IMG/VR virus record: IMGVR_UViG_3300037791_000044
Span: 1-24,977 of that record
DNA: 24,977 nucleotides
Source of the DNA: a virus
Lineage: Duplodnaviria > Caudoviricetes
Direction: 5' to 3' (one strand)
The notes beneath the pieces were generated by a model, which saw nothing but the letters and a program-made list of their open reading frames with translations, was not told where the DNA came from and did no database searches. Positions within the stretch are counted from its first letter, which is position 1, and each line of letters starts with the position of its first letter. The translations under genes were made by a program, and so were the position numbers. Positions 1-23,571 of the stretch are shown piece by piece.

Positions 1-888
1 TCACAAACTCCCACCGAGGTTCGAAATGAGCAGGTCGCCGGCGGGGGTCCAGAAGACCGATATATAATTCCAGGCGCCGGGTCCCCGAAGGGTCCACTCC
101 ACCGGATCGCCAAGCCATACCCCCAGCATCGCGCCGTTGGAACTTTGCACCGTCGCAGTCCGACCTCCAGTCCCATCCTGTTGGATTTTCAGCAGTATGC
201 TGTAGCCGTATCCGGGGAGTGATGGCGGGGCCACCGACAGGATACAGTCGCCGACGATCGTCCCGTAGGCGAACTGGGTCGTATTTGGCGTGATGTTGAC
301 GGTCCCGGTAAGCGCGCCCAAGCTGGTCCCACGCAGTTCTCCACCGGCATCAACACGGATCGGCCCGGTAAAAACCGCCGAACCCGACGCGTTCAAGTTT
401 TTCAGACTGGAAAGCCCAGTCCCGTGGGGCGTAATTACGACGTTGCCATTATTTCGTGACGTAATGGCGAAATCGTTGACGCAAAGATCGCGCACCAATT
501 CGTTTAGAGAGGTATTCGGGATTCCAATCACCCAATCAGACGCGAGGCCTCCGACAGCTATCGTCACTGAAATCGAAAGGGTGGTTTCTACAAAAGCGGT
601 GACGGTGCCAACCATGTAGATGCCCGGATTGCTTTGGCTTTTGACCTGCACTAAAGCCCCGACGGGGATCACGGAAACGGCGGCCTGTTGATCCGTGGTC
701 AAGGAAATCGCGCCTAAACCCGGCGCGAGCGGTGTCGCCGACGTTGCCCCCAGCCCCTTCAGAAAGCGCGTCTCACTCGCAATTGCAGCGAGGATTGCCG
801 GAAACCCGGATTGCTCGTCCGCATAGGCGGTACCTTCGACATTCGCATCGGTGAAGGTTTGGCCCGCAAGGTTCACACTCCAACTCAT
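1..888 (-). CDS. Putative tail fibre / receptor-binding protein (295 aa)
   Basis: GGAGA RBS. Thr/Gly/Val-rich and beta-strand-like. The N-terminal 'TSATPLAPGLGAISLTT..YMVGTVTAF..LSISVT..SDWVI' and C-terminal 'LKIQQDGTGGRT..W' segments resemble phage fibre modules. Lies downstream of the tail tip genes. Confidence 0.65.
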   Translation of the reverse strand: MSWSVNLAGQTFTDANVEGTAYADEQSGFPAILAAIASETRFLKGLGATSATPLAPGLGAISLTTDQQAAVSVIPVGALVQVKSQSNPGIYMVGTVTAFVETTLSISVTIAVGGLASDWVIGIPNTSLNELVRDLCVNDFAITSRNNGNVVITPHGTGLSSLKNLNASGSAVFTGPIRVDAGGELRGTSLGALTGTVNITPNTTQFAYGTIVGDCILSVAPPSLPGYGYSILLKIQQDGTGGRTATVQSSNGAMLGVWLGDPVEWTLRGPGAWNYISVFWTPAGDLLISNLGGSL

Positions 889-978
889 TTCACATCTCCA
901 TGACGAAAAAACAGATCACCCCGGCCGACGTGAAACATCGACAGGCTCATCATTTGATTGGGGACCGTCGGACGCAGA

Positions 979-1833
979 TCAGAGCAGCTCTTCGATCGTG
1001 AAGCTCTTCGAGTAGCGATTGTGTATCGGGTTCAAAATCGGGGTGTTGTCCTGCAAGACGCCGTATACGGAATGCCGATGTCGATGGATGGGGTCATCTG
1101 GGTCTATCATGACGAAGAGATCCCCACCGGTTCCTTTTAAACGCTCCATCTCATAAGCATTCCCGAACATTTCATCCCGCTCGAGATAGTCGATGGAAAA
1201 TCTCAACCGCCTATATTTGGGCTGCACGTCGACATAAGTTTGTCCGCCTCGAGACTTCACCCGTCGGCTGGTATCCACTTGTTCGATCGACCAGCCGTAT
1301 TGCAGATTGATTGATGGTCTCCACGCCGGTCCGACCAGCAGGCGGCCAGCCTCGAGGTATCCGCTCGGATTCTGTGGATCGATAAGCTCGATCAGCACAA
1401 ACCTGGCGATCACCGGCTGCGCGATCAGCTCGAAAGCCGCGATACCATAGGTGACCGCTTCGTCGGCCAACAGGCGCCCGCCCCAATTAAACTCACCCCA
1501 AAGGCCTTGGCCAAAGGGTTGAATGGTCGGCCAAATATCAATCACACCTGAATCGTGAACGACGTCCTCAAACGCGGCATCTTGAGAAAGCGTTACCCGC
1601 CAACGTCCATTCTGGGTGAGATTGTGCCTGAGCAGAGCCAGGAAAGAGACCGGTTTCGGGTCACCGAAATCGGCAATAAAGCGGGTGTCGGCCGGGTCGG
1701 CATTCGTGCTGCGCGCGACCAGGCTGGGCTGACGGGCAGCCAGGTTTTCAATCGGCAGCTCGGCGCTCCAGCTTCCACCAGAAACGGTGGCCGTATCGAA
1801 ATTGTTGCGGTAGGCGATCAGAACCTGTCCCAT
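979..1833 (-). CDS. Tail tip / distal-tail-like structural protein (284 aa)
   Basis: Start re-called to ATG 1833, 4 nt after the upstream stop, with GGGGA RBS. The pattern 'GYLEAGRLLVGPAWRPSINLQYGWS..D.S....SRGG' is typical of siphophage tail tip proteins. Synteny supports this. Confidence 0.7.
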   Translation of the reverse strand: MGQVLIAYRNNFDTATVSGGSWSAELPIENLAARQPSLVARSTNADPADTRFIADFGDPKPVSFLALLRHNLTQNGRWRVTLSQDAAFEDVVHDSGVIDIWPTIQPFGQGLWGEFNWGGRLLADEAVTYGIAAFELIAQPVIARFVLIELIDPQNPSGYLEAGRLLVGPAWRPSINLQYGWSIEQVDTSRRVKSRGGQTYVDVQPKYRRLRFSIDYLERDEMFGNAYEMERLKGTGGDLFVMIDPDDPIHRHRHSVYGVLQDNTPILNPIHNRYSKSFTIEELL

Positions 1834-1837
1834 GCGT

Positions 1838-3352
1838 TCATCCCCAAAGATCAAGAGTGACTTCATTAACCGCTGCGTCCTCCGTCATTCCGACGACCAC
1901 CAACAACCGACCGGTACCGAGGCGATAGCGCGGATAGGTGATCCGGATGGATTGGCCCAATTCCAAGGCATAGGGCTGGGTTTTCAAGCGCACACGAAAG
2001 GCATCCCGATCTGCACCGAATATCGCAAGGCGTCGCGACGCTTCGGTCTCGGCATCAACCTTAAGGGCCAAAGATGTCTCGTCGACGATTTCTTCGGACA
2101 GCGGGTGACGGGTCTTGATCGATGGATCGTCGGCAACGCTGTAGCGAAAGCTCTCGGCCAAATCCGCCCGCGTTTCTTCATCGACCACGCCAGCAACGCC
2201 ATCAGGGCCGATCACCGTCCAGTATTTCCGATACCCGATCTTGCGGCGCCACGCAGGCAGCGATACCGCCACCCGTTCGATCTCCAGAATCTCCTGCTCT
2301 GAGAATGCAAAAAGCGCTGGTTCGACGGGAGCCGCAATCCGGTCAATCGTCAGCTTGCCCGCCCGATTGAATCCGAAATGTGCCCCGACCCCGGCCACGA
2401 CCTGGTCCAACAAGTCGAGAATATTGATCTCATCGGCCGAGAAGATGCCAACCGGCGCCGTAACGGCTGCCATCGCCTGGAAGCTGGGGATATCAAAATC
2501 GTCGGGATCACTCAGATCGCTTCGGGTGCCCACAACGCGTTGCACAATCGAGCCGACCAGTTCGACATAACTTCCGTCTAACTTATCACCTCGAACGTCC
2601 GCCGTGATCTGCCCTGCAGACCCGGCCCCGAGCGTGAACGTTCCCTGACCCGTATTGACGGCATATTGACCCGCAGACGGCGGCCCTGAAACCTTGGTCA
2701 GCGGCACGCCGGTGTCGTAGACCGCATCTACATCTTCAATTGCACCGTCATGGACCTGATAAAGCAACGCGCTGGGATCGACGAGCACCGGTTCGATGTG
2801 AAAGACACGGCCGTAGCACAACGGTTTAGGGCGCCCTTCCAGGCCTGCCCGACCGTCGAGACCTCCCGTGCCGCCATAGCTGGCTCTTTGGATATCGACG
2901 TCGAGTTTGGATTGAAGGTCACGTAAACGAACTGTAACCAGCGCGTCATCGAACTCAATTTGCTCAGCCGTTCCATCGAAGATCAGCCCAAAGTCGTCTA
3001 TCGAAAAACCGTCGCCACCGAGATAGACCCGGACGCGGCGACCATCGAATGCGAAACCGGCCAGATCATCCAGGCCACCATCGGCATTATTCAGAGCCAA
3101 AACGCCGAAGCCGGGGAATGATCGGCCGCCCACCCTACCGGACGAGAACAGCTCCCGCTTAAAATTGAGAGGCGTCACCAAACGCGGGGCGTAGTACGTG
3201 TTCGCCGGCGTATCCAACGGCCCGGTGGTGAAGCCCCGGTCGCTAAACCGCAACTCGGTCACCCCTCCCAGCTCGGGATCAAAAGGCTCGATGACGACCA
3301 GGTAGGATCTAGGCCCAACTGTGTCGGCGATCAGGTTCTGGAAAAGGCTCAT
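1838..3352 (-). CDS. Tail tip / baseplate hub-like protein (504 aa)
   Basis: ATGA-coupled to the tape measure stop. Motifs 'YGGTGGLDG..LEGRPKPLCYGRVFHIEPVLVD..LLYQVHDG' and C-terminal 'ITYPRYRL..G..VTLDLWG' recur in alphaproteobacterial phage tail proteins. Confidence 0.72.
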   Translation of the reverse strand: MSLFQNLIADTVGPRSYLVVIEPFDPELGGVTELRFSDRGFTTGPLDTPANTYYAPRLVTPLNFKRELFSSGRVGGRSFPGFGVLALNNADGGLDDLAGFAFDGRRVRVYLGGDGFSIDDFGLIFDGTAEQIEFDDALVTVRLRDLQSKLDVDIQRASYGGTGGLDGRAGLEGRPKPLCYGRVFHIEPVLVDPSALLYQVHDGAIEDVDAVYDTGVPLTKVSGPPSAGQYAVNTGQGTFTLGAGSAGQITADVRGDKLDGSYVELVGSIVQRVVGTRSDLSDPDDFDIPSFQAMAAVTAPVGIFSADEINILDLLDQVVAGVGAHFGFNRAGKLTIDRIAAPVEPALFAFSEQEILEIERVAVSLPAWRRKIGYRKYWTVIGPDGVAGVVDEETRADLAESFRYSVADDPSIKTRHPLSEEIVDETSLALKVDAETEASRRLAIFGADRDAFRVRLKTQPYALELGQSIRITYPRYRLGTGRLLVVVGMTEDAAVNEVTLDLWG

Positions 3353-6300
3353 GCCACCCTCCCGGAAACCCGACTTCCGGCCACCGTCCGTTCAAGCGTC
3401 CGTCGCAGGGTCGCATTCTCCGCACGCATGTCGGAGACCTCGCTCCGTAGACGCTTGGTCTCATCGACAAGCATCTCAATTCCACGCGCCTGCCGTTCCG
3501 ACAAACCGCTATCGGCGGCCCCTTGATCATTGGCGGGCTGGGTCACCGTAACGGGAATGGTTCGGCCGTCCGGAAGTGGAACGAACGCCTCCGGTGTGCG
3601 GCCTTCTCCAAACAATGTCAGCTGCGGGCCATAAGCTATGCCACCCTGATCATAAGCCTTGAGGGCGAGTGGCCCGAACGCCGTCATGATGCCGCCGTCC
3701 GCAAACCCGATCGTATTCGCAAGGGTATCGACAAGAGCATTGGTCTCCGACGAAAGGCCCGAGCGAAACGTGCCGAAACCGCCGGATCCGAAATCTCCCG
3801 CATACCCAGTGATACGCGCTATCAAGCGGTTGCGGGTGGGGTTGGCGCCGAATTCGGCGTCCGGGTTGGGTAAATCACCGAGATCTCCGGAGAGCGAACG
3901 ACTGATGTCCCGAAGCGTCTCAAGCTGTTCCTCGGCGACCCGAAGCTGTGATTCAGCAATGCTTTCGGTGCTTTCGAGCGCGCCATCCACCTGCTCGAAG
4001 ATACGGGCGTAGTCCTCGCTGCTCGCGTAGAAACTTCTCGCAAGTTCAAGGTACTCGACGCTCGCGTCTGAAAGCTCCGCTTGGGCTTCCAGATCGCCAC
4101 TCTGCGCCAAGTTGGATAGATCTTCAAAACGCAACCGTGCCTGCTCAAGCTGGTCAGCAGGAGATAAAATCGAAAGCTCGCCGGACATGATCCTGCGCCT
4201 GGCTTCGCCGATTTGTTCAACCACCCGACCCGAGGCGTTTGCAAGCTCCTCCTGTTCTCGGATCTGCTCTCCAAGCTCTTGGGTGGCCAGCGCCGTTATC
4301 TGAGCCAGTGTCATCTGAGCGGCAGCGTTATCGTTTGCGGCTGTCGTGCCGACCGACAAAGTGTCGTTCAAAACATCCATAACCGCTTCGTTGTCCGCGA
4401 AGGTGATCTTTAGCTCCTCCATCGCAGCGATCGTCAGATTTCCGCTTTGGAGCATTGTCTCCAACTGTTGAGAGAACAGCTCATCCAAGCCTGAAACATC
4501 CGCGCCGATTGCAATACCGTCCTGTCGACGCGTGTCGATTGACTCAACCAAACCCCCAACCGAATCTACAATTCCCAAACCGTTGCCAGCACGGATATCG
4601 GCGGCGACGCCCTCCTCAAAATCATTGATGACAGCCTGCTGAAGATCAGCCGACGCGGCATCCAAAGACGCGGTGGACTGTGCGACGAAAGCATCGACCG
4701 CATCAGCCAACTCGGGGAACTGCTCCTTCAGCTCTTGCAAACGGTCTGTCAGAGCCGGCATTTGGTCTTCGAACTCGGCTAAAGCCGCCTGACCCTCCAG
4801 CAAGCGCTTCTCGAACTCTCCGAGTTGTTCAGGCTCAAAAGCGCCTGTTAGGGTTCCGATGAACGTCTCGACATCCGCTTGAGCGATATCGATGCCGTCT
4901 AGAATTCGATCGATGTTTTCCTGGTAGGCTGTGGCCGCGTCTTCGGTTTCAAATCTTTGATCCCCAACGGGGGTATCCAGTGAAACCACGCTTTCAATGC
5001 TGGAAATCGTCCCATCTGTGAGGGCTTCACCCACAAGATTTATAGCCTCGACGAGGGAGTCTACCGCCCCGAGGACCTCGCCTTCGGGATCCAACACTTC
5101 AAACTTTCCGTCACGTCCCAGTGACGCATTAGATCGCGTGCTGTATTCGGCCTCGCCAATCCGGAAGCCGCCAAGGCCGTTGAACTTCCCCTCGTCCGCA
5201 GGATCTTCCACGAGAACAAAGTCCTGTGGCAGTCCTGAAATACGCCCGCGTTCCTGTTCGACAGTCATGAGGCTTGCGCCGAGAGCGACGTCCACCGGAT
5301 CTACTTGGCCGGACTCATCCGTGATATCGCCATTTGGGTTGAACAGTTTGAAAATGCGATCCAGGCCGTCGAATATCTCGCCAAAGCGTTCCCCCGCCAA
5401 CTCACGACCGGTCTTCTCCGCCTCTAGACGCTGACGAGCCAAGGCCAAAGTCATCGCATCTATAGACTCTCCGGTATCCTGAAACTCCTGTCGCAATCGC
5501 CCGAAAGCATCGGCAAAGTCGAGGTCCTCAAGCAGCTCGTCCAGGTCTTCAGCCGTGCTGTTCTTGGCGGCCTCTGCGACCTCCGGTGAGTCAAAATCTT
5601 GAAGACCTTGCTTCAATGCCAGAAACACAGCCTTTTCGATAACTTCAGGTTCGGTGAGGCCTTGGATATTCTCATCCTGGCCGAGGACGCCATTCAAAAT
5701 GGTGGATAGCGTGTAGCCACTTTCCCGGCCCGAGCCCGACTCGGGACTGGAGAAATATCCGATGTCGAGGCCGAAGTTCCGATACCCTGCGCCGTACCGC
5801 ACACGCACGTCGTCGACGGCATCGAAAATTTCATCGGTCAGATTGGAAAGGGCGTCGGGATCGCCTCCGTTATCGGCGCTTCCGACCTGGGAGCCTCGTC
5901 CTTCGGGGAACAGCAACCGCGAGATTGTGGTGGGGCCTACAGAGGGTGTTCGCTCGAACAACATCGGACCCAGAATTTCAATCGCCATCATCGCCGCTGC
6001 AATGTAGGGATTTGCGCCGGCCAGGGCGGTGCCCGCCGTGCTCCCTGCACCACCTGCGGCGGCGCCAAAGAAACTGCTTCCCGCACCTATGGCCGTGCTC
6101 GCCACATTTGCTACAGTCGACCCACCCGAGCCGGCCGCACCGGAAGCCGTTCCACCGGAATTGCCGAAAATACCGGCGATCGAACTGATGATCTCGGAGA
6201 AGCCGCCTTGATTTTCCGCTTGCGCGCCTGATCCCGCTCCGCCCGGGAAAAAGCCCGACAGCAAGGAACTTCCAACCGAGAATATTTGGTTCAACCCAAC

Positions 6301-6912
6301 GCCTCGACCGCTTTCGACTCCGCCTATCAGGCGTCCCACCTGGCCCACGAAGCTCGACATGTCGGTCCCGCTGAGCGCCGAAAAAAAATCCGCCACAAGG
6401 GGTTCGACGGCATCAAACACGCCCGATACTGAGACCTTGCCATCCCGCTCAATCTGCTCGAACAGCGTCTTGAAAGTCGTCGCAAGCTTCCCACCAAATC
6501 CGTCCCATTCTTTTGCAACCTTGTCCTCGGCGTCCTTATGGGCTTCGGCCAAGGCGTCGACCTGATCCGTGCTGGCCGCATAAGCGCGATTGGTCCGCTC
6601 GATCGTCTCCAACCGCTCTCGCTCCAAGGCGACCGGGTCCAAATCCGAGCGCGACGCGGACGCGTCGGAAAAACGATCAACCGGCCCGAAGCTGTCGATA
6701 TCGGCAAGACGCTGGGCAATGCCGACGGTCAGACGGCTTAATGCCATCTCAGTATTCGAAATGGTGACAAGCAGCCTTTCGAAAGCCCCATTGATTGCGA
6801 CCGCCGACTTGGCCATCTCGACACCAGAACGGCTGGTCCCACCCGACGCGGCAACAGGATTGGAAGGAGGCCCGTAGGCACTGATCAATTGCTCAAAACT
6901 GGTCATGCTCAC
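3349..6912 (-). CDS. Tape measure protein (1187 aa)
   Basis: Longest ORF, directly after the tail chaperones. Helical and Ala/Glu/Leu-rich, with a Gly/Ala-rich hydrophobic stretch. C-terminal 'FADGGIM..AYDQGGIA..LFGEG..PEAFVPL' motif of lambdoid tape measures. Confidence 0.85.
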   Translation of the reverse strand: MSMTSFEQLISAYGPPSNPVAASGGTSRSGVEMAKSAVAINGAFERLLVTISNTEMALSRLTVGIAQRLADIDSFGPVDRFSDASASRSDLDPVALERERLETIERTNRAYAASTDQVDALAEAHKDAEDKVAKEWDGFGGKLATTFKTLFEQIERDGKVSVSGVFDAVEPLVADFFSALSGTDMSSFVGQVGRLIGGVESGRGVGLNQIFSVGSSLLSGFFPGGAGSGAQAENQGGFSEIISSIAGIFGNSGGTASGAAGSGGSTVANVASTAIGAGSSFFGAAAGGAGSTAGTALAGANPYIAAAMMAIEILGPMLFERTPSVGPTTISRLLFPEGRGSQVGSADNGGDPDALSNLTDEIFDAVDDVRVRYGAGYRNFGLDIGYFSSPESGSGRESGYTLSTILNGVLGQDENIQGLTEPEVIEKAVFLALKQGLQDFDSPEVAEAAKNSTAEDLDELLEDLDFADAFGRLRQEFQDTGESIDAMTLALARQRLEAEKTGRELAGERFGEIFDGLDRIFKLFNPNGDITDESGQVDPVDVALGASLMTVEQERGRISGLPQDFVLVEDPADEGKFNGLGGFRIGEAEYSTRSNASLGRDGKFEVLDPEGEVLGAVDSLVEAINLVGEALTDGTISSIESVVSLDTPVGDQRFETEDAATAYQENIDRILDGIDIAQADVETFIGTLTGAFEPEQLGEFEKRLLEGQAALAEFEDQMPALTDRLQELKEQFPELADAVDAFVAQSTASLDAASADLQQAVINDFEEGVAADIRAGNGLGIVDSVGGLVESIDTRRQDGIAIGADVSGLDELFSQQLETMLQSGNLTIAAMEELKITFADNEAVMDVLNDTLSVGTTAANDNAAAQMTLAQITALATQELGEQIREQEELANASGRVVEQIGEARRRIMSGELSILSPADQLEQARLRFEDLSNLAQSGDLEAQAELSDASVEYLELARSFYASSEDYARIFEQVDGALESTESIAESQLRVAEEQLETLRDISRSLSGDLGDLPNPDAEFGANPTRNRLIARITGYAGDFGSGGFGTFRSGLSSETNALVDTLANTIGFADGGIMTAFGPLALKAYDQGGIAYGPQLTLFGEGRTPEAFVPLPDGRTIPVTVTQPANDQGAADSGLSERQARGIEMLVDETKRLRSEVSDMRAENATLRRTLERTVAGSRVSGRVA

Positions 6913-7241
6913 GGGCTCCCTTGTGTGCTGCGCTCGCGCCGCCGCTCGGCAACGCGGGTGAGATAGGCGTCGTCCATTGCGCGGATCAGATGAATGAAGT
7001 CTTCGGTCTCCCGCATATCAAACAAAGCGCAGTAGGCCTGGATTTCAGTCAGTGGAATGGGTCCCGCAACAGCCAGGGTCGGACCGGCGTGAAGCGGTCG
7101 GCTCGCCGACAGGACCCCGAACGCCCGGAGCACCGGCTCCAGATCCTCGAAAACGTCCGGTTTGTCCGTTAGCGCTTGCGGGATGATCCCGCTCTGATCA
7201 GCAAGCGCGTTCAGGAAGTCGAGCTGGTTTCCCCAGTCCAA
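6909..7241 (-). CDS. Tail assembly chaperone C-terminal part (gpT-like), probably made as a -1 frameshift fusion
   Basis: Only a TTG start. Lies in the -1 frame relative to the upstream chaperone and is open from the slippery site. 'AFGVLSASR..GPIPLTEIQAY..IRAMDDAYL' motif. Confidence 0.8.
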   Translation of the reverse strand: MDWGNQLDFLNALADQSGIIPQALTDKPDVFEDLEPVLRAFGVLSASRPLHAGPTLAVAGPIPLTEIQAYCALFDMRETEDFIHLIRAMDDAYLTRVAERRRERSTQGSP

Positions 7242-7666
7242 CTGCCACTGGACGACGTCTCGGAGTTTTTTTCCGCGTCCTCCAGATCCTGCTGACGGTA
7301 GAGTTCCAGATCGCTCGCCATTTCAACGACAAGGTCCCGGAAATCCTTGAACCGCGTATCGCACAAGAGGGTCCGCGCGGCCTCCGCAGAGTACGTCAGC
7401 GGTGCGCCGCCATCGGTCAGCCCCTGCCAATCCAGCAGCACCGTTTCCGCCAGAACCTCGGCGGTGATCTGCTCCGTTACACGCTCATCCAACGTGCCGT
7501 TGCGAAGGGCCCGGCGGTATGGTTTTAGCCGTTTTGTCATCGCTTCGCGGTAACGGCGGTTACCGATACGAGCGATCTTGATTCGGGCGCCGGTGCCGAC
7601 GTCGACCGAGGTCCAAACGCCCTCATCTTCGAGCTGCGGATCGGCTTTGAAGCGGGTGAGGTCCAT
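7211..7666 (-). CDS. Tail assembly chaperone (gpG-like, 151 aa)
   Basis: GAGGAG RBS. Sits between tail tube and tape measure. 'EDEGVW..IKIARIGN..LAETVLLDWQG..YSAEAA..LL' pattern, with EKN at the slippery site. Confidence 0.85.
   Translation of the reverse strand: MDLTRFKADPQLEDEGVWTSVDVGTGARIKIARIGNRRYREAMTKRLKPYRRALRNGTLDERVTEQITAEVLAETVLLDWQGLTDGGAPLTYSAEAARTLLCDTRFKDFRDLVVEMASDLELYRQQDLEDAEKNSETSSSGSWTGETSSTS
7265..7271 (-). other. Programmed -1 ribosomal frameshift heptamer A-AAA-AAC
   Basis: Minus strand reads GCG GAA AAA AAC TCC. A -1 slip gives ..K-L-R-D-V-V-Q-W-Q-L-D-W-G-N-Q.., in frame with 6909..7241. Confidence 0.85.
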
Positions 7667-7775
7667 ATGGGACTCCTCTCTGATGCGAACGAGACGAATG
7701 AAACGTCAGAGGCAGACGACACCGTTACAAACCGGCGCCGCCTGCGTTATCCGACAATGGTGAAAAGCGAACGGA

Positions 7776-9932: not shown

Positions 9933-9936
9933 GTCA

Positions 9937-10266: not shown

Positions 10267-10293
10267 GACTCCTCCAGATCGGAAAAGGATCAC

Positions 10294-12483: not shown

Positions 12484-12498
12484 CGCCTCTCCAGCCTA

Positions 12499-12918: not shown

Positions 12919-13037
12919 GTCGGTCTCCCAGGTTTGATCCGTCGATACCTCGGCTAAGGACGACGGTGGCTGGTTTTGCGACAAGGCCTCCATATCTTAT
13001 TCAGTCCCAAGCGGCGGGTTTCGACATCCGCATCGAA

Positions 13038-14350: not shown

Positions 14351-14450
14351 ACTTTTACCTCCTTTTGGCGATCGCATCATGCGCCAAGAAGAGAGGAAAA
14401 ATCAAACTCCGATTGTAAGAGTCATTTCTGAATTTGAATACGCTATCCCC

Positions 14451-15361: not shown

Positions 15362-16726
15362 TCAGGCGGCCTCGGCGTCGATGACCCCGCGTCTGCGGAT
15401 CTCCGACAGGAAGGCCTCGCGGCTCAGCTCACCGGCGAGCCGCATTTTCAGCAGCATGTCGATTTCCTGGGCGGCCTCCGGGGCCAGGCCGACATCGGTA
15501 TCCAAGGTGACGCGGCCCGCCGCTTCCGGATCGATTGACATCCAGTCGGTCGCGAGGCGCAAGGCGCGGGTTAGCCCGTCCTCGACGGCACGGACGGCGG
15601 AGGACAGCGCACTATCGGCACGCGCGGCATCGATCGCCCGCTCGGTCGCGGTCATCCCACCGGAGCGTTGCACCAGCAGATCCAATCCCATCACCGCCAT
15701 CCGGTCCTCAAGATCCGCGAGATCCTGGCGGCCGGCCTCGATCGCGGCCCCGGAGTGCTCGACATAACGCAGATCGGCAGTGTCCCCGTCGCCGATGATC
15801 AGGCGGTTCGGGCCGATCTCGATGCCGTCCTCGCCGACTTTGAGATTGCGGCCGAACAGAATCGGCACCCGGGCCACGTGGAGGATGTGGCGCTGGTCCG
15901 AGCTCGACTGCCAATGGGCGAGGTTGAGCCAGGCCAGATCGATCAGCCCGGGGCGCGCCGTCATGAACCCGGTCCGATCGGCGTAGATCGTGACCAACGG
16001 GATCGTGTCCATCGAGGTCTCCCCCGAGGCGTGCCGCGTCCAGAGATCGGAAGCGCCGCCCTCGCCGCGCCGCCAGGTCTCCCATCGGCCGGGCTCAAGC
16101 ACGCGGATTTGTTCAATCGGTCGTTCACCCCACGCGCCGTCGCGCTCAACCACCACTTCGCGGATCCGGACCCGGTCCAGCGTGCCGCCGACCCCCTCCT
16201 CCGACAGCCGCCAGCCGATCAAGTCGCGCGCCGGAATGTGGACCAGGTAGGGTCGGATGCCCCGCGCCCGTTCGTCGGCCAAGGTCTTGCCTTCACCGGT
16301 CACGCCGCCAACGGGGTAGTCGACCAACACATGGGTTAGCCCGTCGGAAACGGCCGCGCGTAGGATGTCGCGGGCGAAGACGGTGAGATCGCGGCCTCCC
16401 AGGTCCAGGTTCTCGCAGATCCGCCGGATGTCGGGGTGGGCGTCGTCGGTCAGCGTGACGGGCTTCTGGAACGGCTTGCCGACCAGGGTTTGCAGCGCCC
16501 GGCCGATGCCATTGAACAGCACCGTGCGGTTGAGCCGAATGCGGTAGGCCTGAAAGCTTTCCCGCGGCTCGCGCGGCAGCCAGCGTTCACCGGCAACCCG
16601 CATCGAGCGGGTGCCGCCCAGCAAATCGTGCACCAGCTCCCAATCCGGAGCCATCGCGGACCAGGCGCCGTTCGGGGTCGCGACATCGGCCTCGGTGCCG
16701 AGTACGCCGGGAGTGTGGTCTGTCAT
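15362..16726 (-). CDS. Portal protein (DUF4055-type, 454 aa)
   Basis: GAGGA RBS. 'LLGGT..MR.AGE.WLP..P.E...Y..RL', 'G..HVLVDYP', 'RPY' and 'LAWLNLAHWQSSSDQRHILHVARVPIL' motifs. Confidence 0.9.
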   Translation of the reverse strand: MTDHTPGVLGTEADVATPNGAWSAMAPDWELVHDLLGGTRSMRVAGERWLPREPRESFQAYRIRLNRTVLFNGIGRALQTLVGKPFQKPVTLTDDAHPDIRRICENLDLGGRDLTVFARDILRAAVSDGLTHVLVDYPVGGVTGEGKTLADERARGIRPYLVHIPARDLIGWRLSEEGVGGTLDRVRIREVVVERDGAWGERPIEQIRVLEPGRWETWRRGEGGASDLWTRHASGETSMDTIPLVTIYADRTGFMTARPGLIDLAWLNLAHWQSSSDQRHILHVARVPILFGRNLKVGEDGIEIGPNRLIIGDGDTADLRYVEHSGAAIEAGRQDLADLEDRMAVMGLDLLVQRSGGMTATERAIDAARADSALSSAVRAVEDGLTRALRLATDWMSIDPEAAGRVTLDTDVGLAPEAAQEIDMLLKMRLAGELSREAFLSEIRRRGVIDAEAA

Positions 16727-16763: not shown

Positions 16764-17153
16764 TCAGGTTTCGTCCCACCAGAACGGAATGGTCACGGTC
16801 GCCTCGAATTCGTCGAAGCCACCTCCGGTCAGCGACACCACGGCGGCACGGGTCCGGGCGCCGCCGATGGTGCGGTGGCGGAACAGGACCGCGATCTCGT
16901 CGGCCATCGACAAAACCTCGCCCGACCCCACGCCCTTGGGCACATGGCAGCGGATCCTGATCGAGCCTTTGTGGCGGTATAGCGGTGGCTGTCCCAAACC
17001 GATGACCTCCGTACTTTCGGTGACCAGGAACAGGCTGAGGTAGCGGCCGTCCGCGGGGGTCGTGAACTCGACGTTTTCAAAGGCGATCGGCGTCGAGCTC
17101 CAGGCTCCAACCAGATACGCCTCGACCGCGCCGCGCAGGGCTGCGTGTCCCAT
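16764..17153 (-). CDS. Tail terminator-like protein (DUF4128-like, 129 aa)
   Basis: GGGAGA RBS. 'TPIAFENV.F..P....Y....LG...R..G.I.I....PKG.G......AD.IA.LF....VTIPF' pattern. Confidence 0.78.
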   Translation of the reverse strand: MGHAALRGAVEAYLVGAWSSTPIAFENVEFTTPADGRYLSLFLVTESTEVIGLGQPPLYRHKGSIRIRCHVPKGVGSGEVLSMADEIAVLFRHRTIGGARTRAAVVSLTGGGFDEFEATVTIPFWWDET

Positions 17154-17219: not shown

Positions 17220-17579
17220 TCAATCGGATACTAACCGCTTGCGTCGCCGACGACGGCGCGTCCACCAGGTCCAGAAAATCCAACTGTGCAAAGCAAGCGA
17301 CAATGTAGTGCTAAATAACCCTGCAAATACCAAAAACTTAGCAACCCCACTACCGGTAACGACATTAAATAAAACTGATAAAGGAATTGAAATTTCTAGA
17401 ATACGTCGATCATACCTTCCTCTTTTCTTAAAGTGGGTCCGAAATTTTCTAATTCTATAGTTTGTGAGTATGTCAACAGGAACGACCACAAAAAACAGCA
17501 ATAAACACTGAATCAAACTTATTTGAATAGCTAAACGCAATAATTCTATTTCTCGGTCCAATTCTTCTAAAATGCTCAT
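17220..17579 (-). CDS. Small 3-TM membrane protein, immunity candidate 2 (119 aa)
   Basis: Three hydrophobic segments, an Arg-rich tail, AT-rich, GGGGGG upstream of the ATG. Resembles 17640..17972. Confidence 0.65.
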   Translation of the reverse strand: MSILEELDREIELLRLAIQISLIQCLLLFFVVVPVDILTNYRIRKFRTHFKKRGRYDRRILEISIPLSVLFNVVTGSGVAKFLVFAGLFSTTLSLALHSWIFWTWWTRRRRRRKRLVSD

Positions 17580-17639
17580 TCAACCCCCCGTAAAATCAAA
17601 TCACATTCCACCGCACGCTTCACCAAATTGACGCCGATT

Positions 17640-17972
17640 CTACTTCTGCCCCGTGAACCAAACACCAATTACAAATAAAGACAAAAGCAAACCCAACGTA
17701 GTGCTGATAAACATGTAGTATATTAAAAATCTAACAAACACCAATCCATGAAATATTGAAACAATAAAAGAAATAATTAAACAAAAAATAAAAAATTTTG
17801 GCAAATATTTGTATTTTCTATGGCCGTCTTGAAGAAATTCAACAAACTCTTCACTTCCAAAAATTTTCCTGAAAATCAAAATTAATGCCAATATAAAAAT
17901 TTCAATCACGCCTATGGTCAACAAATTTCTGAAGAGCACTAAGTCCTCTGGAGTTATACCATCCGCATTCAT
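17640..17972 (-). CDS. Small 3-TM membrane protein, immunity candidate 1 (110 aa)
   Basis: GAGGT RBS. Three hydrophobic segments. Very AT-rich (8/60 G+C in 17761-17820). Confidence 0.7.
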   Translation of the reverse strand: MNADGITPEDLVLFRNLLTIGVIEIFILALILIFRKIFGSEEFVEFLQDGHRKYKYLPKFFIFCLIISFIVSIFHGLVFVRFLIYYMFISTTLGLLLSLFVIGVWFTGQK

Positions 17973-18025: not shown

Positions 18026-19717
18026 TCATTTTTCAGTCAAAAAAATCGCGACTTCAAGAATGCTTGTCGGTGATGCGTCAACAACGGAGCCAATAACACT
18101 AATCGCATTTTTTACAACTGCGGCAGCCGTGAGCTTGAAGAATAGAGCCTTCAGCTCTGCTGTTGGTTTGTATTTCAGGTTGAACCGGTTGGCTGATTCA
18201 CTATTCAACCGAAAAACGTAAAGCAACGCACTTGCTGCAATTCGATCGGACAAATACAAACGTTCAATTCTGTGCTTAATGTTCAGATTTCCAGCAAGGC
18301 GGTAATCGTCTCCGACCAACAGTATCTGCTCCATCAAATTCAATATCTGCGGCCTTTCCTGATCTGAAACACAAAGAGCCTTGATCCGAAAAATTTCCAG
18401 AAGATAACCCTCGCGGGTGTAACCGCTGGGAACCGCGATCCCGTAGATGGACCCCGTACTCCCGTCCAAATCAGTGATCCGCCGTTCGACCTCCGCCTTA
18501 AGATCGGACACGAAGGTTTTCTCCACGGCCATGGACATGAATGAGATAGCGGCAATCGGCACTCCGATCCGGGTCGCAGCGTCTTTTGCCGCCTTGCTGA
18601 TTTTGACGAGTCCGAGAGATGCGAGAATACTGGGAATGATGTAGGAACCAGCCGTCACAACGATTCCTGCAATAAGGGCGTATTGCGCAAGAACTACATA
18701 CTCTTGGATAACCGCGATCAGCGTTTCGCTATCCTGATATTCCATCCAGTCCGCCAAAAACGGCCGCCCCATCGCATTGCGTCTATGCTCAAGCATCTCA
18801 GCGGCGCGGCTATCCGATCGGCTGACTTGATCGATGATTTGGCTCAACCGACCGGATAATGTCCCGTCTTGGCTCGGCAGTTTCGCGATGAGGCCTATTG
18901 CACCCGCGAGGATACGTTCTTCGACCTGGAACTGCCCTGGTGTAACCTTGCACCGCGCAAATTGTGCCTGTCCAACCCGGATCTCGGACTGTGTCGCCAA
19001 CGGCTGCCCGGTCACATAGGTGGCGCCACCGGTCCCATGGTGCCCCACCGCCTGTGTCCAGCTCGCATCTTGCAGTACGCGATCAAGCGCCTGCCAAAGC
19101 GCCCGAGGCACCATGCCCGACGATCCATCCAACGGAGCCATTCTGCCAACTCGGGGGTCGGCCACATGCAGCGATTGTACCTCAATACGCGCCGACACCC
19201 GTAAATCCCGGTCCAGGCCGACCCACTTGACGCCGGTCGCCAACCCAAGATCATGCTCGACCCGCAACAGCGCCTGCATGAAGCGCTGTCTGAGGGTTTG
19301 ATCCGAGATCGCTTTCTGCCGGTCGAACTCTGACAGGATCGACTGGGTCGTTCGGCGCAAGTCCTTTGTCCAATAAGCCTGCGGAGGCTGGGCGTTTGGC
19401 AGCAGGCGAAGCTCATTGGCCCAGGGGGCCGCCTTGTCGAGCAGCGCGCGCCAGGTGTTCGAGTTCGGTCGGATTGTGCCGTCGGTCTCGGCCTGACCGA
19501 AACGGTCCATCTGGCCGGAGGCGGATGCGGTGAGCCCGGCATAGCGCTGAAAAGCGGCGATCGCCTGCACCAGCGCCTCCGAGCCCATACCGGTCAGACC
19601 GCCATCCCAGAACCCATGACCCGGTCGCTCTCCGATATTGGCCAGCAGCACCTGCACCTTCAGCACGTCCTCTCTCGACACATTGCGGCCCTCGTCACCG
19701 CACAGTTGCATCTGCAT
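18026..19717 (-). CDS. Peptidoglycan-binding-domain protein with hydrophobic C-terminal region, candidate toxin/effector (563 aa)
   Basis: GAGGAG RBS. N-terminal 'N..EDV.KVQ.LL..DG..G....AI.AFQ...GL..DG.I.P...T..AL' matches the PG_binding_1 pattern. Two hydrophobic helices at about aa 335-400. Confidence 0.7.
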   Translation of the reverse strand: MQMQLCGDEGRNVSREDVLKVQVLLANIGERPGHGFWDGGLTGMGSEALVQAIAAFQRYAGLTASASGQMDRFGQAETDGTIRPNSNTWRALLDKAAPWANELRLLPNAQPPQAYWTKDLRRTTQSILSEFDRQKAISDQTLRQRFMQALLRVEHDLGLATGVKWVGLDRDLRVSARIEVQSLHVADPRVGRMAPLDGSSGMVPRALWQALDRVLQDASWTQAVGHHGTGGATYVTGQPLATQSEIRVGQAQFARCKVTPGQFQVEERILAGAIGLIAKLPSQDGTLSGRLSQIIDQVSRSDSRAAEMLEHRRNAMGRPFLADWMEYQDSETLIAVIQEYVVLAQYALIAGIVVTAGSYIIPSILASLGLVKISKAAKDAATRIGVPIAAISFMSMAVEKTFVSDLKAEVERRITDLDGSTGSIYGIAVPSGYTREGYLLEIFRIKALCVSDQERPQILNLMEQILLVGDDYRLAGNLNIKHRIERLYLSDRIAASALLYVFRLNSESANRFNLKYKPTAELKALFFKLTAAAVVKNAISVIGSVVDASPTSILEVAIFLTEK

Positions 19718-19771: not shown

Positions 19772-21109
19772 CTAAAACAGAAATTCACGGCTGTCCGCTG
19801 GCCTGCCGCCGAAGGCCAGCTCGGTCAGAGCCCACACCAAGGCGTCCAGCCGATCGGGAGAGCCTTCGGACGGATCGCCCGTGAAGCCCACCATCTGGTC
19901 CTCCAACGCCTGTAAAGGTTTGGCGTGACGCACCCGTCCCTGCTCGTACAGCGCCGCGATCGGCTCGGCCCGCAGGCGTTTGCCTTTGGTCGCCCGTACA
20001 CTGCGCACCGGAACGTTGGGGTCTACCGTCCCCAGGGTCGCACGCACCATATCGCCCCCCTGATTGACCTCGCAGACCAACGCATCCGCCGCATGGCTGC
20101 GCCATAGAGTAATCGCCCGGCGCGCCCAATCGTCTGGCGAATACCGGCCGGAACCGTCTTCCAGCACCCAAAACTCGCCGTCACGTCCCAGACTGGTGAC
20201 ACCCGCCACCACGATGCCGGTCTCGTCCGAGCCGTCGTGGGCGGTGACAGCCGGGTCGACGGCAACCACCGTGCGCACCAACGGCGGCGGCCCACCGGAT
20301 GTGGCCCTGGCCCTCTCAAGACCGCTTCTGTTCCAAAGCGCGCCGGGCAGGTCCACGAGGTATTCGCCGTCGATTTCCTGTCGACCCAATCGTGTCCCGC
20401 CGTAGCGGGCCAGGATTTGGTCCAGGAATCCTGGGGCCAGATTGTCGGTATTCTCGTGGGTTGCCCCGCGGGTCACCCGGGTTGCCGGGTCCGCGATCAG
20501 CCGCGAAAGCCAGGCCCGTGGTTTCGGCGTGGTTGTCGCCACGCAGCGCGGGTCGCTGCCCAACCGCAGACCCAGCATCAGGTTGTCCCAAGCGGCCTCG
20601 TGACGCCATTTGGCGATCTCATCGGCCCAGGCAGCATCGAATTGCGGGCCGCGCAGCTGATCCGGATCGTCCGCCGAGAACGAGGTCGCGATCGCGCCGT
20701 TCGGCCAAGTCAACCGGCGCTTGGACGGCTCGTATTTCGGGCGAAACCACGGCGGGCACGTGGCCAGGATGCCACTCTCCCCCTCAATCATTACGTCACG
20801 CGCATCGGCTGCCGTCTCCCCCACCAGCGCGATGCGCCGCGCCTGGCCCCGTTCGGCCAAGGTTCGCACCCATTCCGCACCGGTTCGGGTTTTCCCGAAC
20901 CCCCGTCCGGCCAGGATCAACCAGACCCGCCACGCGTCTAACGGCGGCAATTGCTTGTCCCGGGCCCAGATCGTCCAATCGAACAACAGGACCGCTACCT
21001 CGGAATCGGTGAGCTTGGAGACGAAATCCCTACGCGCCTTCGGCGTCAGACTCCGTATCCAGGCCCGCAAGGCGGGTTTCAAGTGTTTCGCGGGCGTTGG
21101 AGACTTCAT
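19772..21109 (-). CDS. terL: Terminase large subunit (445 aa)
   Basis: Walker A 'AGRGFGKT', Walker B 'LRGPQFDAAWADE', motif III 'TTTP', nuclease motifs 'VAVDP..DETG', 'EVNQGG' and 'SPDRLDALVWA'. Confidence 0.96.
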   Translation of the reverse strand: MKSPTPAKHLKPALRAWIRSLTPKARRDFVSKLTDSEVAVLLFDWTIWARDKQLPPLDAWRVWLILAGRGFGKTRTGAEWVRTLAERGQARRIALVGETAADARDVMIEGESGILATCPPWFRPKYEPSKRRLTWPNGAIATSFSADDPDQLRGPQFDAAWADEIAKWRHEAAWDNLMLGLRLGSDPRCVATTTPKPRAWLSRLIADPATRVTRGATHENTDNLAPGFLDQILARYGGTRLGRQEIDGEYLVDLPGALWNRSGLERARATSGGPPPLVRTVVAVDPAVTAHDGSDETGIVVAGVTSLGRDGEFWVLEDGSGRYSPDDWARRAITLWRSHAADALVCEVNQGGDMVRATLGTVDPNVPVRSVRATKGKRLRAEPIAALYEQGRVRHAKPLQALEDQMVGFTGDPSEGSPDRLDALVWALTELAFGGRPADSREFLF

Positions 21110-21491
21110 CGGCTAGGGCCTCGTCCAAATCCGGGGTGTCGGCCGCTGCGGCCGCGCGCTCTCGATACCGCTCGGGGCGGTGCGCTTTGAGCAGAAACAT
21201 CAGCAGGGAGTCCGAGTATTTTTTGACGGTGCCGGCGATGTTTCCTTGGTGAAAGTGCGGGCTATCAACTCCGTCCACCGCCCGACGCCGTGCCTCCGCC
21301 TCAAGGGAGTCCACCGCATTCTCCAACGCGTCGGTCCATTCCGAAGCGAAGTCGATATCGGTCGACCGCATCGCGTAGGCGTGGCTGCGGGAAACCCCCG
21401 CCTTCCGGGCCGCTGCCGAAATGTTGCCGGATCTGCCAAGCTCCTTCAGGAACTTCGTGCGGCGTTGTGATGTCCAACGAATGGCGGGCAT
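21030..21491 (-). CDS. terS: Terminase small subunit (153 aa)
   Basis: Start re-called to ATG 21491 (GGAGG RBS). HTH 'FL..L...GNISAAARKAGVSRS.AY..R..D..FA..W..A', then 'LE.EARRRA..G' and 'YSDSLLMFLLKAHRPERY'. Overlaps the terL start. Confidence 0.85.
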   Translation of the reverse strand: MPAIRWTSQRRTKFLKELGRSGNISAAARKAGVSRSHAYAMRSTDIDFASEWTDALENAVDSLEAEARRRAVDGVDSPHFHQGNIAGTVKKYSDSLLMFLLKAHRPERYRERAAAAADTPDLDEALADEVSNARETLETRLAGLDTESDAEGA

Positions 21492-21578
21492 GAAACCTCC
21501 GCAAAAAGACACGCGCCCGCAGCGCCACGCTCACATCGGAGCGGCCGAAGGGGCTCGCAGAAAAACAGGAAACCGCAT

Positions 21579-21620
21579 ATGCAACGCGGCCGGGATCGAC
21601 ATCCCGGCCGCGTGCTGCAT
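21579..21620 (-). terminator. Strong hairpin in the late leader (candidate terminator/attenuator)
   Basis: ACGCGGCCGGGAT-CGAC-ATCCCGGCCGCGT, a perfect 13-bp stem with an outer ATGCA/TGCAT pair. A T-rich run follows on the minus strand but is not directly adjacent. Confidence 0.5.
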
Positions 21621-21764: not shown

Positions 21765-21828
21765 AAACATGGGAGCCGGTTTATCGGATGAAAGGGTGTT
21801 GAACGCGCCTTCTCCGACCGTGCCACAA

Positions 21829-21857
21829 GTTTTATCCGATCTTATAAACGTTGTAAA
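21829..21857 (-). promoter_or_regulatory. Candidate sigma70 late promoter for the virion operon
   Basis: Minus strand TTTACA-N17-TAAAAC in an AT-rich patch just past the stop of the DUF6362-like gene. Confidence 0.5.
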
Positions 21858-21868
21858 GCGTTTTTTTC

Positions 21869-22405
21869 CTACAATTTTTCATCCGACCTCAGAACGTTGA
21901 AATCATGAGTAATTCTGCGCTCAAGATTTGTTCGATCGAACGGCCCTCTGGTGTCTCGAAGATGCCGACGAACCTTCTGCAGCCCCCGATTGGCAACCTG
22001 CCGCAGGGTCATATGGCTACGTCCGTCCAGAGCCTCCAGCTTTCGCCAGGGGATCTTGCAGGCGCGGGCCCAGAGGATTCGCCGTTCACCCTCCTCGCAT
22101 GCCAGCAGCCAGGACAGCACCTCATCCATGCGGTCGATCGCACGCGGTTGCGGGGCTGGTGGTCGGGTCCGGGTGCGCTCGGACGTCGCCAACAGGGAGA
22201 CAGAATTCTGGACGACCTCCGGCCACGAGGTCAGATGCGCCTTCAAACTGGCGCGAGGCATGGCCCTTAGGGTGGCGGCAGCATCCTCCAGGTAGGCCTG
22301 GAGCGCCGCGTCATCCATGGGAAATTCGGGTGCCGATCTGGTGGACATACCACTGTCTTGCGGACGGGATACCGCCGGCTTCAGGCGCTGGGGCGCGCGC
22401 GTCAT
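21869..22405 (-). CDS. DUF6362-like putative late-gene regulator (178 aa)
   Basis: Start re-called to ATG 22405 (GGAGG RBS, ATGA-coupled to the upstream gene). 'LEDAA.TLR.MP..WPEV..P.P.AIDRMDEVL.WL....ERRILWARA..IPW' motif, ending in a sigma-region-4-like HTH. Confidence 0.72.
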   Translation of the reverse strand: MTRAPQRLKPAVSRPQDSGMSTRSAPEFPMDDAALQAYLEDAAATLRAMPRASLKAHLTSWPEVVQNSVSLLATSERTRTRPPAPQPRAIDRMDEVLSWLLACEEGERRILWARACKIPWRKLEALDGRSHMTLRQVANRGLQKVRRHLRDTRGPFDRTNLERRITHDFNVLRSDEKL

Positions 22406-22683
22406 CGGCCGCCCTCCCGTGCAACGGACTCGCCGGGGTATGGGATCGGTTTCAGGTCGCGCAGGGCGCGTATTCGGTTGGCTTCCCGGATGACCGTGCG
22501 CAGCGGAACCGGCCTGCCATCGCACGAAAAATGCCCGCGTCCATCGGTGACAGCCCTCCCGTTGAGGGTCTTCAATGCGCACTCGACCGGAGGACTGAAG
22601 GACTGACTACGGCCGGACGCGACACTGGACAAATTTCTCTTGGTGATGGAAGCGGGGGGGATAACGGCGTAACTGATAGGCAT
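22402..22683 (-). CDS. Small basic hypothetical protein divergent from the repressor (93 aa)
   Basis: GAGG RBS, a promoter with perfect TATAAT upstream, and a stop coupled to the next ATG. C-terminal 'F..DGRP.....VIREANRIR.......IPYPG'. Confidence 0.65.
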   Translation of the reverse strand: MPISYAVIPPASITKRNLSSVASGRSQSFSPPVECALKTLNGRAVTDGRGHFSCDGRPVPLRTVIREANRIRALRDLKPIPYPGESVAREGGR

Positions 22684-22705
22684 GAACTTACAACCTCTCG
22701 GGTTA

Positions 22706-22741
22706 AATAGGAATTATAGTACAATTAATTTCTTATTGAAA
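22706..22741 (-). promoter_or_regulatory. Candidate promoter/operator of the leftward regulatory operon
   Basis: Minus strand TTTCAA-N17-TATAAT (22741-22713), overlapped by the imperfect inverted repeat AATAGGAATT..AATTTCTTATT (22706-22737). Confidence 0.6.
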
Positions 22742-22800
22742 ACCGATCAATCATTTTTTTACGTATTCCCTTCGAACCCCAATCGGATTAGTCTGAGATC

Positions 22801-23571
22801 ATGAAATTAGATCCCGTACGTCGAAAATTGTTGGAGCTGGTCGCCCATCGCGATCCGCCGACGGACCTGAAAAAGGCGTCGCTGTTCTGCGGCAAGAACC
22901 ATGCGTATCTGCATCAGTTCGTGCATCGCGGAACGCCCCGAAAGCTGCCGGAAGACGTGCGACACGCGCTGGCACTTCATTTGGGGGCCGATGAACAGCT
23001 GCTCCGCCACGAAACCCTGCCCCCGTCCGGGACCGCTGGACGGCAAAGTCTGGACGTCACCGCCCGGCGGCCCAGCGCCTACGCCTACGGCATGCCGGGT
23101 TTGGCGGACAGAGATCAGACAGCGGTACGCCCCATCGACCCCGAGACCGAACCCGGCGTCGTCGCGATCCCCGAGGTGCGTGTGGTAGCCGCCGCCGGTG
23201 GCGGGTCGGTCGCCGAGTACGAACCACTGGGTGACAACTGGTTCTTCCCGGTCGCTTGGCTGCGGCACGAGTTGCGGGCGAAAGCCGCGGATCTGAAGAT
23301 CATCTCGATCGACGGCGATTCGATGGAGCCGGTGCTCGAAAGCGGCGACAAGGTTCTGATCGACACCTCCCGCGTGGCGCCGACCCCGCCGGGAATTTTC
23401 GTCCTCCACGACGGATTGGGTCTGGTTGCCAAGCAGGTTGAGTTCATTCCGAACACCGACCCCGCCGGTCTCGTCATCAAGTCCGCCAATCCGCGCTATC
23501 AGGATTACGAACGGACGGTGGATGAGGTGAACATTGTCGGCCGGGTGATCTGGTTCGCCCGCCGGGTCTAG
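22801..23571 (+). CDS. CI/LexA-like repressor with S24 peptidase domain (256 aa)
   Basis: N-terminal HTH 'LKKASLFCGKNHAYLHQFV.RGTPRKL', Ala-Gly cleavage site 'AAAGGG', catalytic Ser 'GDSMEP', catalytic Lys 'LVAKQV', 'IKSANPRY' and 'IVGRVIW'. Confidence 0.92.
   Translation: MKLDPVRRKLLELVAHRDPPTDLKKASLFCGKNHAYLHQFVHRGTPRKLPEDVRHALALHLGADEQLLRHETLPPSGTAGRQSLDVTARRPSAYAYGMPGLADRDQTAVRPIDPETEPGVVAIPEVRVVAAAGGGSVAEYEPLGDNWFFPVAWLRHELRAKAADLKIISIDGDSMEPVLESGDKVLIDTSRVAPTPPGIFVLHDGLGLVAKQVEFIPNTDPAGLVIKSANPRYQDYERTVDEVNIVGRVIWFARRV

Follow-up and report, generated by a model that had tools for sequence, protein, structure and literature searches.

The DNA analyzed here (hereafter, the window) is a 24,977-nucleotide (nt) virus record, IMGVR_UViG_3300037791_000044, in which a phage head and tail operon is joined to a small regulatory switch; we refer to this phage-derived locus as the element. 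On the minus strand, a 93-amino-acid (aa) open reading frame (ORF), the DUF6362 gene, the small and large terminase genes (terS and terL) and the head–tail operon follow one another, and a divergent gene for a repressor with helix-turn-helix (HTH) and S24 peptidase domains is followed by a host amidase gene. The genes for terminases, tail terminator, portal, scaffold, coat, adaptor, head closure, tube, chaperones, tape measure and tail tip were all open and full length, in agreement with an earlier note on this DNA, which had called the head, connector and tail ORFs intact. The same note had placed about 1.3 kb and two small genes between terS and the repressor gene; the distance from start to start is 1,309 bp, and the two genes are DUF6362 and the 93-aa ORF. 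The amidase that it saw behind the repressor is present as a neighbor peculiar to the window's own lineage (genomes G010 and G034). Seven accessory ORFs, partly of low GC content, interrupt the operon at two places. A family scan of the 34 window ORFs found no integrase, replication or lysis family, and PDB sequence searches with TerL, the coat protein and the 504-aa tip protein gave no matches. The features of the window are the following.

22801–23571, plus strand: CI/LexA-like repressor of 256 aa with HTH and S24 peptidase domains (family scan and residue alignment).
22705–22790: divergent control region with a sigma-70-like promoter (minus strand, 22742–22713) and operator-like half sites AT(A/C)GGA, to which the repressor would bind.
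22402–22683, minus strand: 93-aa ORF in the position of cro, assigned to no family; it recurs in relatives and is lost in many.
21869–22405, minus strand: DUF6362 protein of 178 aa with a sigma4-like HTH, a predicted Q21/AlpA-type antiterminator (family and structure model).
21825–21872, minus strand: conserved late promoter (−35 TTTACA, 17-nt spacer, −10 starting with TA) with degenerate operator-like sites around it.
21513–21613, minus strand: hairpins and terminator-like sites of the leader upstream of terS, which do not exceed chance when the window is taken by itself (65% of shuffles).
21030–21491, minus strand: small terminase, homologous to the gene preceding terL in RcGTA-like clusters.
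19772–21109, minus strand: large terminase (Terminase_6N/6C) of the headful group around RcGTA TerL, with virus-type Ala287/Thr297.
18026–19717, minus strand: accessory 563-aa protein with a peptidoglycan-binding domain, an endolysin-like middle fold and a variable C terminus; candidate polymorphic toxin.
17220–17972, minus strand: two low-GC membrane ORFs of 110 and 119 aa, candidate immunity genes.
16764–17153, minus strand: tail terminator, moved upstream of the portal gene.
15362–16726, minus strand: portal (DUF4055, phrog_145).
14451–15320, minus strand: scaffold (phrog_206).
11560–14380: accessory island that comprises DUF6731 with a low-GC membrane ORF, an ORF of 164 aa whose N terminus is signal-like, and a 307-aa plus-strand ORF.
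10376–11530, minus strand: major capsid protein of the P22 coat family, 384 aa.
9100–10266, minus strand: small conserved ORF, adaptor Ad1 and head closure Hc1.
6909–8945, minus strand: tail tube and two tail assembly chaperones.
3349–6912, minus strand: tape measure, 1,187 aa.
1–3352, minus strand: three putative tail-tip genes (504, 295 and 295 aa; phrog_8917 and phrog_8610), so named from their position.
23592–24977, plus strand: host amidase, outside the element.

The best named homologues of the portal protein were found in Thalassobaculum, BAL199 and Nisaea and then in Puniceispirillaceae, and the gene order recurs in them; in Nisaea, the tail terminator gene has its usual place, whereas in the window it precedes the portal gene. 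Within the family of T. fulvum (Thalassobaculaceae), the coat gene was present in single copy in 23 of 63 genomes (one of them with two part-matches at contig ends). Of 192 genomes of the SAR116 order, which holds the Puniceispirillaceae, 24 carried terL and 67 the repressor; completeness figures were not given for this order, so the misses do not show absence. All 15 core genes were present in 20 of the 34 family genomes with a repressor locus. Strains with a complete cassette include Nisaea denitrificans DSM 18348 and Thalassobaculum fulvum KCTC 42651. Complete cassettes in the SAR116 order (G006, G008, G167 and G236) combine a tape measure of about 200 aa with a tip of the lambda type, a porin and either a lysozyme or an M15 peptidase, and the three that were tested contain a GTA_holin_3TM-type holin. 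Other SAR116-order loci show deletions of all sizes at one place, down to a lone repressor (G174 and G181). Outside the two orders, G367 holds a full cassette with both Nisaea-type flanks, its portal and coat being just 28–30% identical, and G487, G429 and G602 have HK97-type heads, although G429 and G602 may be unrelated cases. The core may predate both orders, its modules having been swapped. Portal homologues in Rickettsiales-labeled metagenome-assembled genomes and betaproteobacteria (L103, L106–L111 and L116–L122) were set aside as ordinary prophages, as tblastn found no linked cI–DUF6362–terS–terL core.

The element occupies a fixed chromosomal position across relatives, as the earlier note had envisaged. 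A gene for a TrmA-type methyltransferase, RHH_4, AsmA or a hydantoinase lies at most 6 kb from the repressor end in 55 of 57 loci, all selected for holding the repressor, and RHH_4 alone does so in 40 of the 57, in both orders and in G367. Because the hydantoinase family is large, the 14 loci tied by hydantoinase alone are weaker evidence; G005 connects the two sets. The remaining two loci belong to the window's own lineage and have the amidase instead. The tail-side flank is constant within groups, with queuosine genes in Thalassobaculum, DUF3108–ahcY in Nisaea and polyprenyl synthase–glyQS–ppdK in SAR116; DUF3108 is also the tail-side neighbor in G005 and G367. No phage integrase or replication protein came up when 113 cluster representatives and another 146 flank proteins were scanned against Pfam. 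G055 and G057 contain transposases, and some SAR116 copies are flanked by host genes for primase and RpoD. End repeats of the att type were no longer than in shuffled sequence in six of six elements, and ARAGORN reported three transfer RNAs (tRNAs) in 29 stretches, namely a doubtful one in a tail-end ORF of G004 and two host tRNA-Met that lie several kb away from the repressor. The absence of replication and integration genes proposed in the earlier note held for the window ORFs scanned and, like that of att repeats, for the flanks of relatives; it could not be read for the window's own left flank, as the record was trimmed at gene ends and opens with the stop codon of its final tip gene. The protein database places one window protein on a 110,759-bp contig, and a metagenome scan found no closer left flank.

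The element has been inherited largely with its hosts. A tree of TerS, TerL and portal from 25 genomes shared 17 of 22 splits with the rpoB tree (shuffles: mean 0.15, maximum 2), with no conflict at support of 0.95 or more and a patristic correlation of r = 0.925; three genomes without full terL or portal were omitted, and all trees were built with FastTree. A tree of repressor, DUF6362 and TerL that included three outside genomes shared 15 of 23 splits with rpoB, again with no strong conflict. The comparison with the species tree proposed in the earlier note came out in its favor; in deeper lineages, head and tip modules have been exchanged. Nei–Gojobori dN/dS across the element was near 0.1 (0.07–0.21 in ten of ten pairs), which also favors the interpretation in the earlier note. 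Between the window and G010 it was 0.109 over 2,648 codons, with 0.12 for the host amidase, and in close Nisaea pairs it was 0.07–0.09 across head and tail genes. Low values were also obtained where one member of a pair has since lost genes, and they therefore record past as well as present selection. Terminase and portal are conserved to the same degree as the tail.

Given its gene content, its conserved promoters, the constant chromosomal site, a tree that matches that of the hosts and the low dN/dS, we conclude that this is very probably a host-maintained, non-replicating, phage-derived element. An ordinary temperate phage, with integrase and replication genes on the missing left flank or elsewhere, would agree with the filing of the record as a virus and with its unreadable left flank. 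We consider it highly improbable, given a single copy at a fixed site with a host-congruent tree across two orders. In G010, moreover, a small membrane gene and an opposite-strand ORF come after the tip gene, and in complete relatives host genes start within about 3 kb of the element end.

An eroding relic would owe its low dN/dS to earlier selection, and its repressor–antiterminator pair would outlast the rest as a silencer or as an AlpR/AlpA-like switch. The SAR116-order repressor does outlast terL (67 versus 24 of 192 genomes) and carries stops in some cases, independent deletions take the tail end first, and G055 and G056 carry insertions of about 42 and 66 kb, with Tn7-like genes, between DUF6362 and terS. 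Erosion nevertheless appears unlikely in view of the 20 of 34 family genomes that keep all core genes, the dN/dS of the close Nisaea pairs, the complete copies that persist in SAR116 genomes of 2.1–2.8 Mb and the rpoB distance of 0.6 between the two orders. The earlier note had named patchy distribution with relaxed selection as the mark of a decaying prophage. The distribution is indeed patchy, but it became so through deletion at one site, and the copies tested showed no relaxed selection. In G038, a SMODS/DncV-like nucleotidyltransferase gene (L435:10541–11827) stands where virion genes were lost, and the site may now be a defense island.

The control genes of the element suggest an inducible switch. 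The window repressor retains Ser174, Lys211 and the Ala132-Gly133 site, and all three cleavage features are kept in 26 of 36 aligned repressors. Catalytic residues of the LexA/cI type with an Ala-Gly site are those of RecA-assisted self-cleavage. The DNA-damage induction suspected earlier fits these intact residues. The repressor also gave a below-cut-off match to the NCBIfam ECH_1013 family S24 regulator (E = 1e-20). The 93-aa ORF is shared in position and sequence with G010, G001, G057 and G060.

DUF6362 was present in 84 of 401 sampled alphaproteobacterial genomes. In ordinary prophages, as read from the sequence of the 30 best loci, replication-type and RuvC-like genes mostly come before it and a methylase gene after it, so that it holds the place of lambda Q. 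Its structural model (pLDDT 80) contains a sigma4-like HTH. Among the top structural matches, the longest alignment was a weak one to Q21 (Z = 6.3, 103 residues, r.m.s.d. 4.4; TM 0.42 and E = 2.9 in Foldseek), and the fold resembles AlpA weakly (Z = 4.5). From its Q-like position and this weak match, DUF6362 is predicted to be a Q21/AlpA-type antiterminator, although sigma4 domains score as high.

The late promoter before terS, with TT(T/G)AC(A/G), a conserved 17-nt spacer and TA, was found in 30 of 30 loci. A terminator-like leader hairpin follows in 18 of the 30 (4.2 expected) and is missing in one SAR116 clade. A genome-wide search for the 16-bp palindrome ATAGGAWNNWTCCTAT in five genomes of the SAR116 order gave 13 matches, of which 11 sit in the two promoters (control: 7 matches). 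The two remaining stray sites in five genomes, against the 7 control matches, led us to reject a host regulon of the repressor. Two further candidates were discarded. A perfect palindrome in the window, AATCNGATT, is not conserved as such, the conserved unit being the half site AT(A/C)GGA, and the two near-boxes in the window that might indicate CtrA control are conserved in just 4 of 34 control regions. Contigs from two RNA runs cover the element and host genes of G167 in short pieces at similar depth, a pattern that may stem from DNA carry-over and to which we give no weight.

The same layout of repressor, antiterminator and late promoter is described for AlpR/AlpA (PMC7969949), GafZ (PMC11150451) and BrrG (bioRxiv 2024.11.20.624540). 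In Pseudomonas aeruginosa, the antiterminator under the control of the self-cleaving AlpR has its binding site between −35 and −10 and acts at a leader terminator, which is then passed; AlpR binds the late promoter too (PMC7969949). A repressor-plus-antiterminator switch is thus not unprecedented (AlpR/AlpA and PBSX). Alp controls lysis genes only, without virion genes, whereas the element has a virion operon. Among 40 further DUF6362 loci, 15 have an adjoining divergent repressor, with at most a small ORF or insertion sequence between. Orphan repressor–DUF6362 pairs also occur in host surroundings that lack virion genes (L372 in G591, L383 in G352, L377 in G604, L389 in G276 and L385 in G444), possibly as AlpR/AlpA-like leftover switches.

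The packaging genes relate the element to a known gene transfer agent (GTA). Its TerL is about 50–55% identical to those of RcGTA-like clusters such as L029, and its TerS matches the gene preceding terL in many such clusters. The nearest phage TerLs include those of Tank, Wilde, Sansa, R5C and GMA2, which Esterman et al. place closest to RcGTA TerL, within the headful packagers (PMC7947584). In our tree, the TerLs of the element lie among phage sequences, outside the RcGTA-like clades, and do not form one supported clade.

We propose that the ancestor was a temperate siphophage that probably lost everything between cI and Q. The repressor would be bound to the 16-bp palindrome at both promoters, and DNA damage would lead to its RecA-assisted self-cleavage. 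DUF6362 would then be made, bind the late promoter between −35 and −10 and carry RNA polymerase past the leader terminator, after which heads and tails would assemble. With no excision or replication, the chromosome would be the sole substrate for a headful terminase, which would cut only chromosomal DNA before the cell lyses. A GTA-like function, in which tailed particles are filled with host DNA, is thus the reading toward which we lean, at somewhat better than even chances, and the label 'GTA' is our interpretation of these genes. As a bolder and still tentative proposal, the element may represent a fourth independently domesticated GTA lineage, predating the split between Thalassobaculaceae, SAR116 and further RcGTA-lacking alphaproteobacteria, with a fixed, damage-induced cI–Q–terminase core, swapped head and tail modules and, in some species, an endolysin-derived polymorphic toxin.

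Several observations weigh against a GTA-like function. The particle, the packaging of host DNA and its transfer are predicted from genes. In alignment, the TerL residue pair was virus-type Ala/Thr in 26 of 27 copies, Ser/Thr in one and the GTA-type pair in none, while RcGTA-like loci have Pro/Cys (Pro282/Cys292) in 42 of 44. The nearest phage relatives of the capsid come from genomes of 56–76 kb and the element locus spans about 17–25 kb, so the head might hold the whole locus. The full cleavage set is incomplete in 10 of 36 repressors, the Q21 match of DUF6362 is weak and ranks below its sigma4 matches, and ATAGGAWNNWTCCTAT is degenerate in the window's family. Core genes are missing in 14 of the 34 family genomes, in at least seven by within-contig deletion (G053, G041, G032, G031, G030, G034 and G038), the remaining loci ending at contig breaks. 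Only four complete cassettes stand against many scars in the SAR116 order. Finally, the G002/G052 Thalassobaculum clade has no recognizable endolysin, and Phage_lysozyme was not found in five of five genomes tested; the Thalassobaculaceae copies end in small holin-like or spanin-like ORFs without a recognized endolysin.

The virus-type TerL residues and unreduced capsid relatives would also suit locus-biased transfer, in which TerS recognizes a pac site in the element and the neighboring chromosome is moved in headfuls, as in lateral transduction. The window TerS is full length, with an N-terminal HTH-like segment (a weak ModE match). We regard this alternative as quite unlikely, since TerS is homologous to the RcGTA-like cluster gene and a single chromosomal copy without replication would provide few headfuls per lysed cell.

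A different use of the particle is suggested by the 563-aa gene after terL. Its product combines a peptidoglycan-binding domain with a second domain that weakly resembles the M15 endolysins Ply500 (Z = 7.5) and LysB4 (Z = 7.1), values within the noise band, and no conserved zinc ligands were found. The N-terminal ~310 aa are common to the copies and the C terminus is exchanged. The T. fulvum copy ends in Ntox44 (E = 2.7e-15), and those of the window, G060, G027 and G057 end in a divergent helical domain, which matched no family in the window. Small membrane genes follow wherever the DNA continues, and GC content across this region of the window drops from 0.66 to 0.31. The protein may have been derived from an endolysin, serve as a toxin carrier or combine the two, and the membrane ORFs are candidate immunity genes. 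Atlas searches with the 563-aa protein returned peptidoglycan-binding clusters only and none for the C terminus, and Foldseek gave no match at E = 0.001 for the 233-aa Nisaea form. An 88%-identical homologue (P0122) has a C terminus 19 residues longer. The long form was found in five genomes or records (the window, G001, G060, G027 and, split, G057). The gene is short in Nisaea and absent from G010, the closest relative, and from the G002/G052 clade, and hence does not provide the core function of the element.

Such a cargo beside the portal gene would suit a PBSX-like weapon, that is, damage-induced particles that may contain host DNA but are selected to kill or inhibit related cells, a polymorphic toxin being released or carried along in some lineages. 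The tip genes differ in length, and PBSX itself is a precedent, being a conserved, SOS-induced element that packages random 13-kb pieces of host DNA and is bactericidal (PMC8347963). We nevertheless judge a weapon, the main alternative to the GTA-like reading, rather unlikely. The long form was found in only the five genomes or records named above, no sheath gene is present, and terminase and portal match the tail in conservation. PBSX of Bacillus, compared by description, resembles the element in having one conserved locus, a divergent repressor, a late activator and head, tail and terminase genes; it differs in its contractile sheath and sigma-like late factor, whereas the element, which spans two orders, combines a Q-like gene with a non-contractile tail. 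MuF polymorphic toxins of temperate phages likewise combine a conserved N terminus, a variable toxin C terminus and an immunity gene in the head region (PMC5576092), with MuF in place of the peptidoglycan-binding, endolysin-like fold.

To return to the GTA-like reading, the element shares with RcGTA and CcGTA (Rhodogtaviriformidae) vertical inheritance, the lack of replication and integration genes and homologous TerS and TerL, and its SAR116 copies share GTA_holin_3TM and a short tape measure. The Caulobacter GTA likewise has RogA, which is an HTH-S24 repressor, and the antiterminator GafZ, in parallel with the repressor and predicted antiterminator here. In contrast, the element has a DUF4055 portal, a scaffold and a P22-type coat where RcGTA has HK97 portal, protease and capsid. 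The DUF2460/hub/NlpC tail set and HK97 head set of Rhodogtaviriformidae are lacking in comparison with L029, and DUF2460, an RcGTA marker, was found in none of ten host genomes. TerL falls outside the RcGTA-like clades, with Ala/Thr instead of Pro/Cys, and the control regions have no conserved CtrA box, unlike RcGTA. Linkage of its regulators to the operon is a further difference, and most copies of the repressor retain the catalytic residues that RogA lacks (PMC9632790). The element is therefore outside the RcGTA family. The earlier contrast with RcGTA holds for head and tail and was overstated otherwise, terS and terL being homologous and the SAR116 tape measure being about 200 aa. BaGTA of Bartonella (Bartogtaviriformidae), compared by description, has a Q21-like antiterminator, BrrG, that turns on its virion operon, as DUF6362 would here, and differs in its run-off replication module and HK97-type capsid. 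Among the six criteria for GTA viriforms of Kogay et al. 2022 (PMC9662315), genomics supports three, namely Caudoviricete-derived particle proteins, full endogenization (its genomic part) and vertical inheritance; the other three concern particles filled mostly with random host DNA, a head that cannot hold the element's own genome and the delivery of DNA to other cells.

Shakya et al. (PMC5721377) report only small RcGTA clusters and no large ones from Rhodospirillales-type and SAR116 bacteria. A GTA-like function would extend gene transfer by capsids to SAR116, a clade abundant in the sea, and would make some database 'proviruses' (the window record, L004/L161, L160 and L170) host machinery. 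It would be a second domestication from the TerL group that gave RcGTA, yet with virus-type residues, and hence a direct test of whether Pro282/Cys292 is needed for random packaging. The route would be simple, a deletion between cI and Q. Searches of the CC-licensed PMC and bioRxiv literature found no description of the element, although its TerLs may be listed without comment in published tables. They gave no paper on DUF6362 or on Thalassobaculum or Nisaea with a prophage or GTA, and the SAR116 matches appear to concern lytic phages or viromes.

Further variation was seen around the operon. In L084, L088 and L112, a second, partial tail-terminator copy follows the cargo–immunity block and precedes the portal gene, likely the scar of a cassette exchange by recombination. 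DUF6731 and the low-GC membrane ORF (13038–14380 in the window) are inserted between scaffold and coat, have no counterpart in relatives and resemble a two-gene defense cassette; PADLOC reached a best E of 0.001 over nine accessory ORFs. In two Thalassobaculum-group genomes, the intergenic stretch that separates terL from the tail terminator contains repeated elements (L089:8514–9525 and L091:9000–9506). Nisaea and G005 (L100:11331–12113) share a conserved 240–265-aa coiled-coil gene between portal and scaffold, with a weak CheZ match. In the SAR116 cassette, a Gram-negative porin gene lies on the operon strand between the tip gene and the holin (L283:13938–14987, L285:14870–16036 and L259:5190–6383), possibly as a receptor-exclusion or conversion gene.

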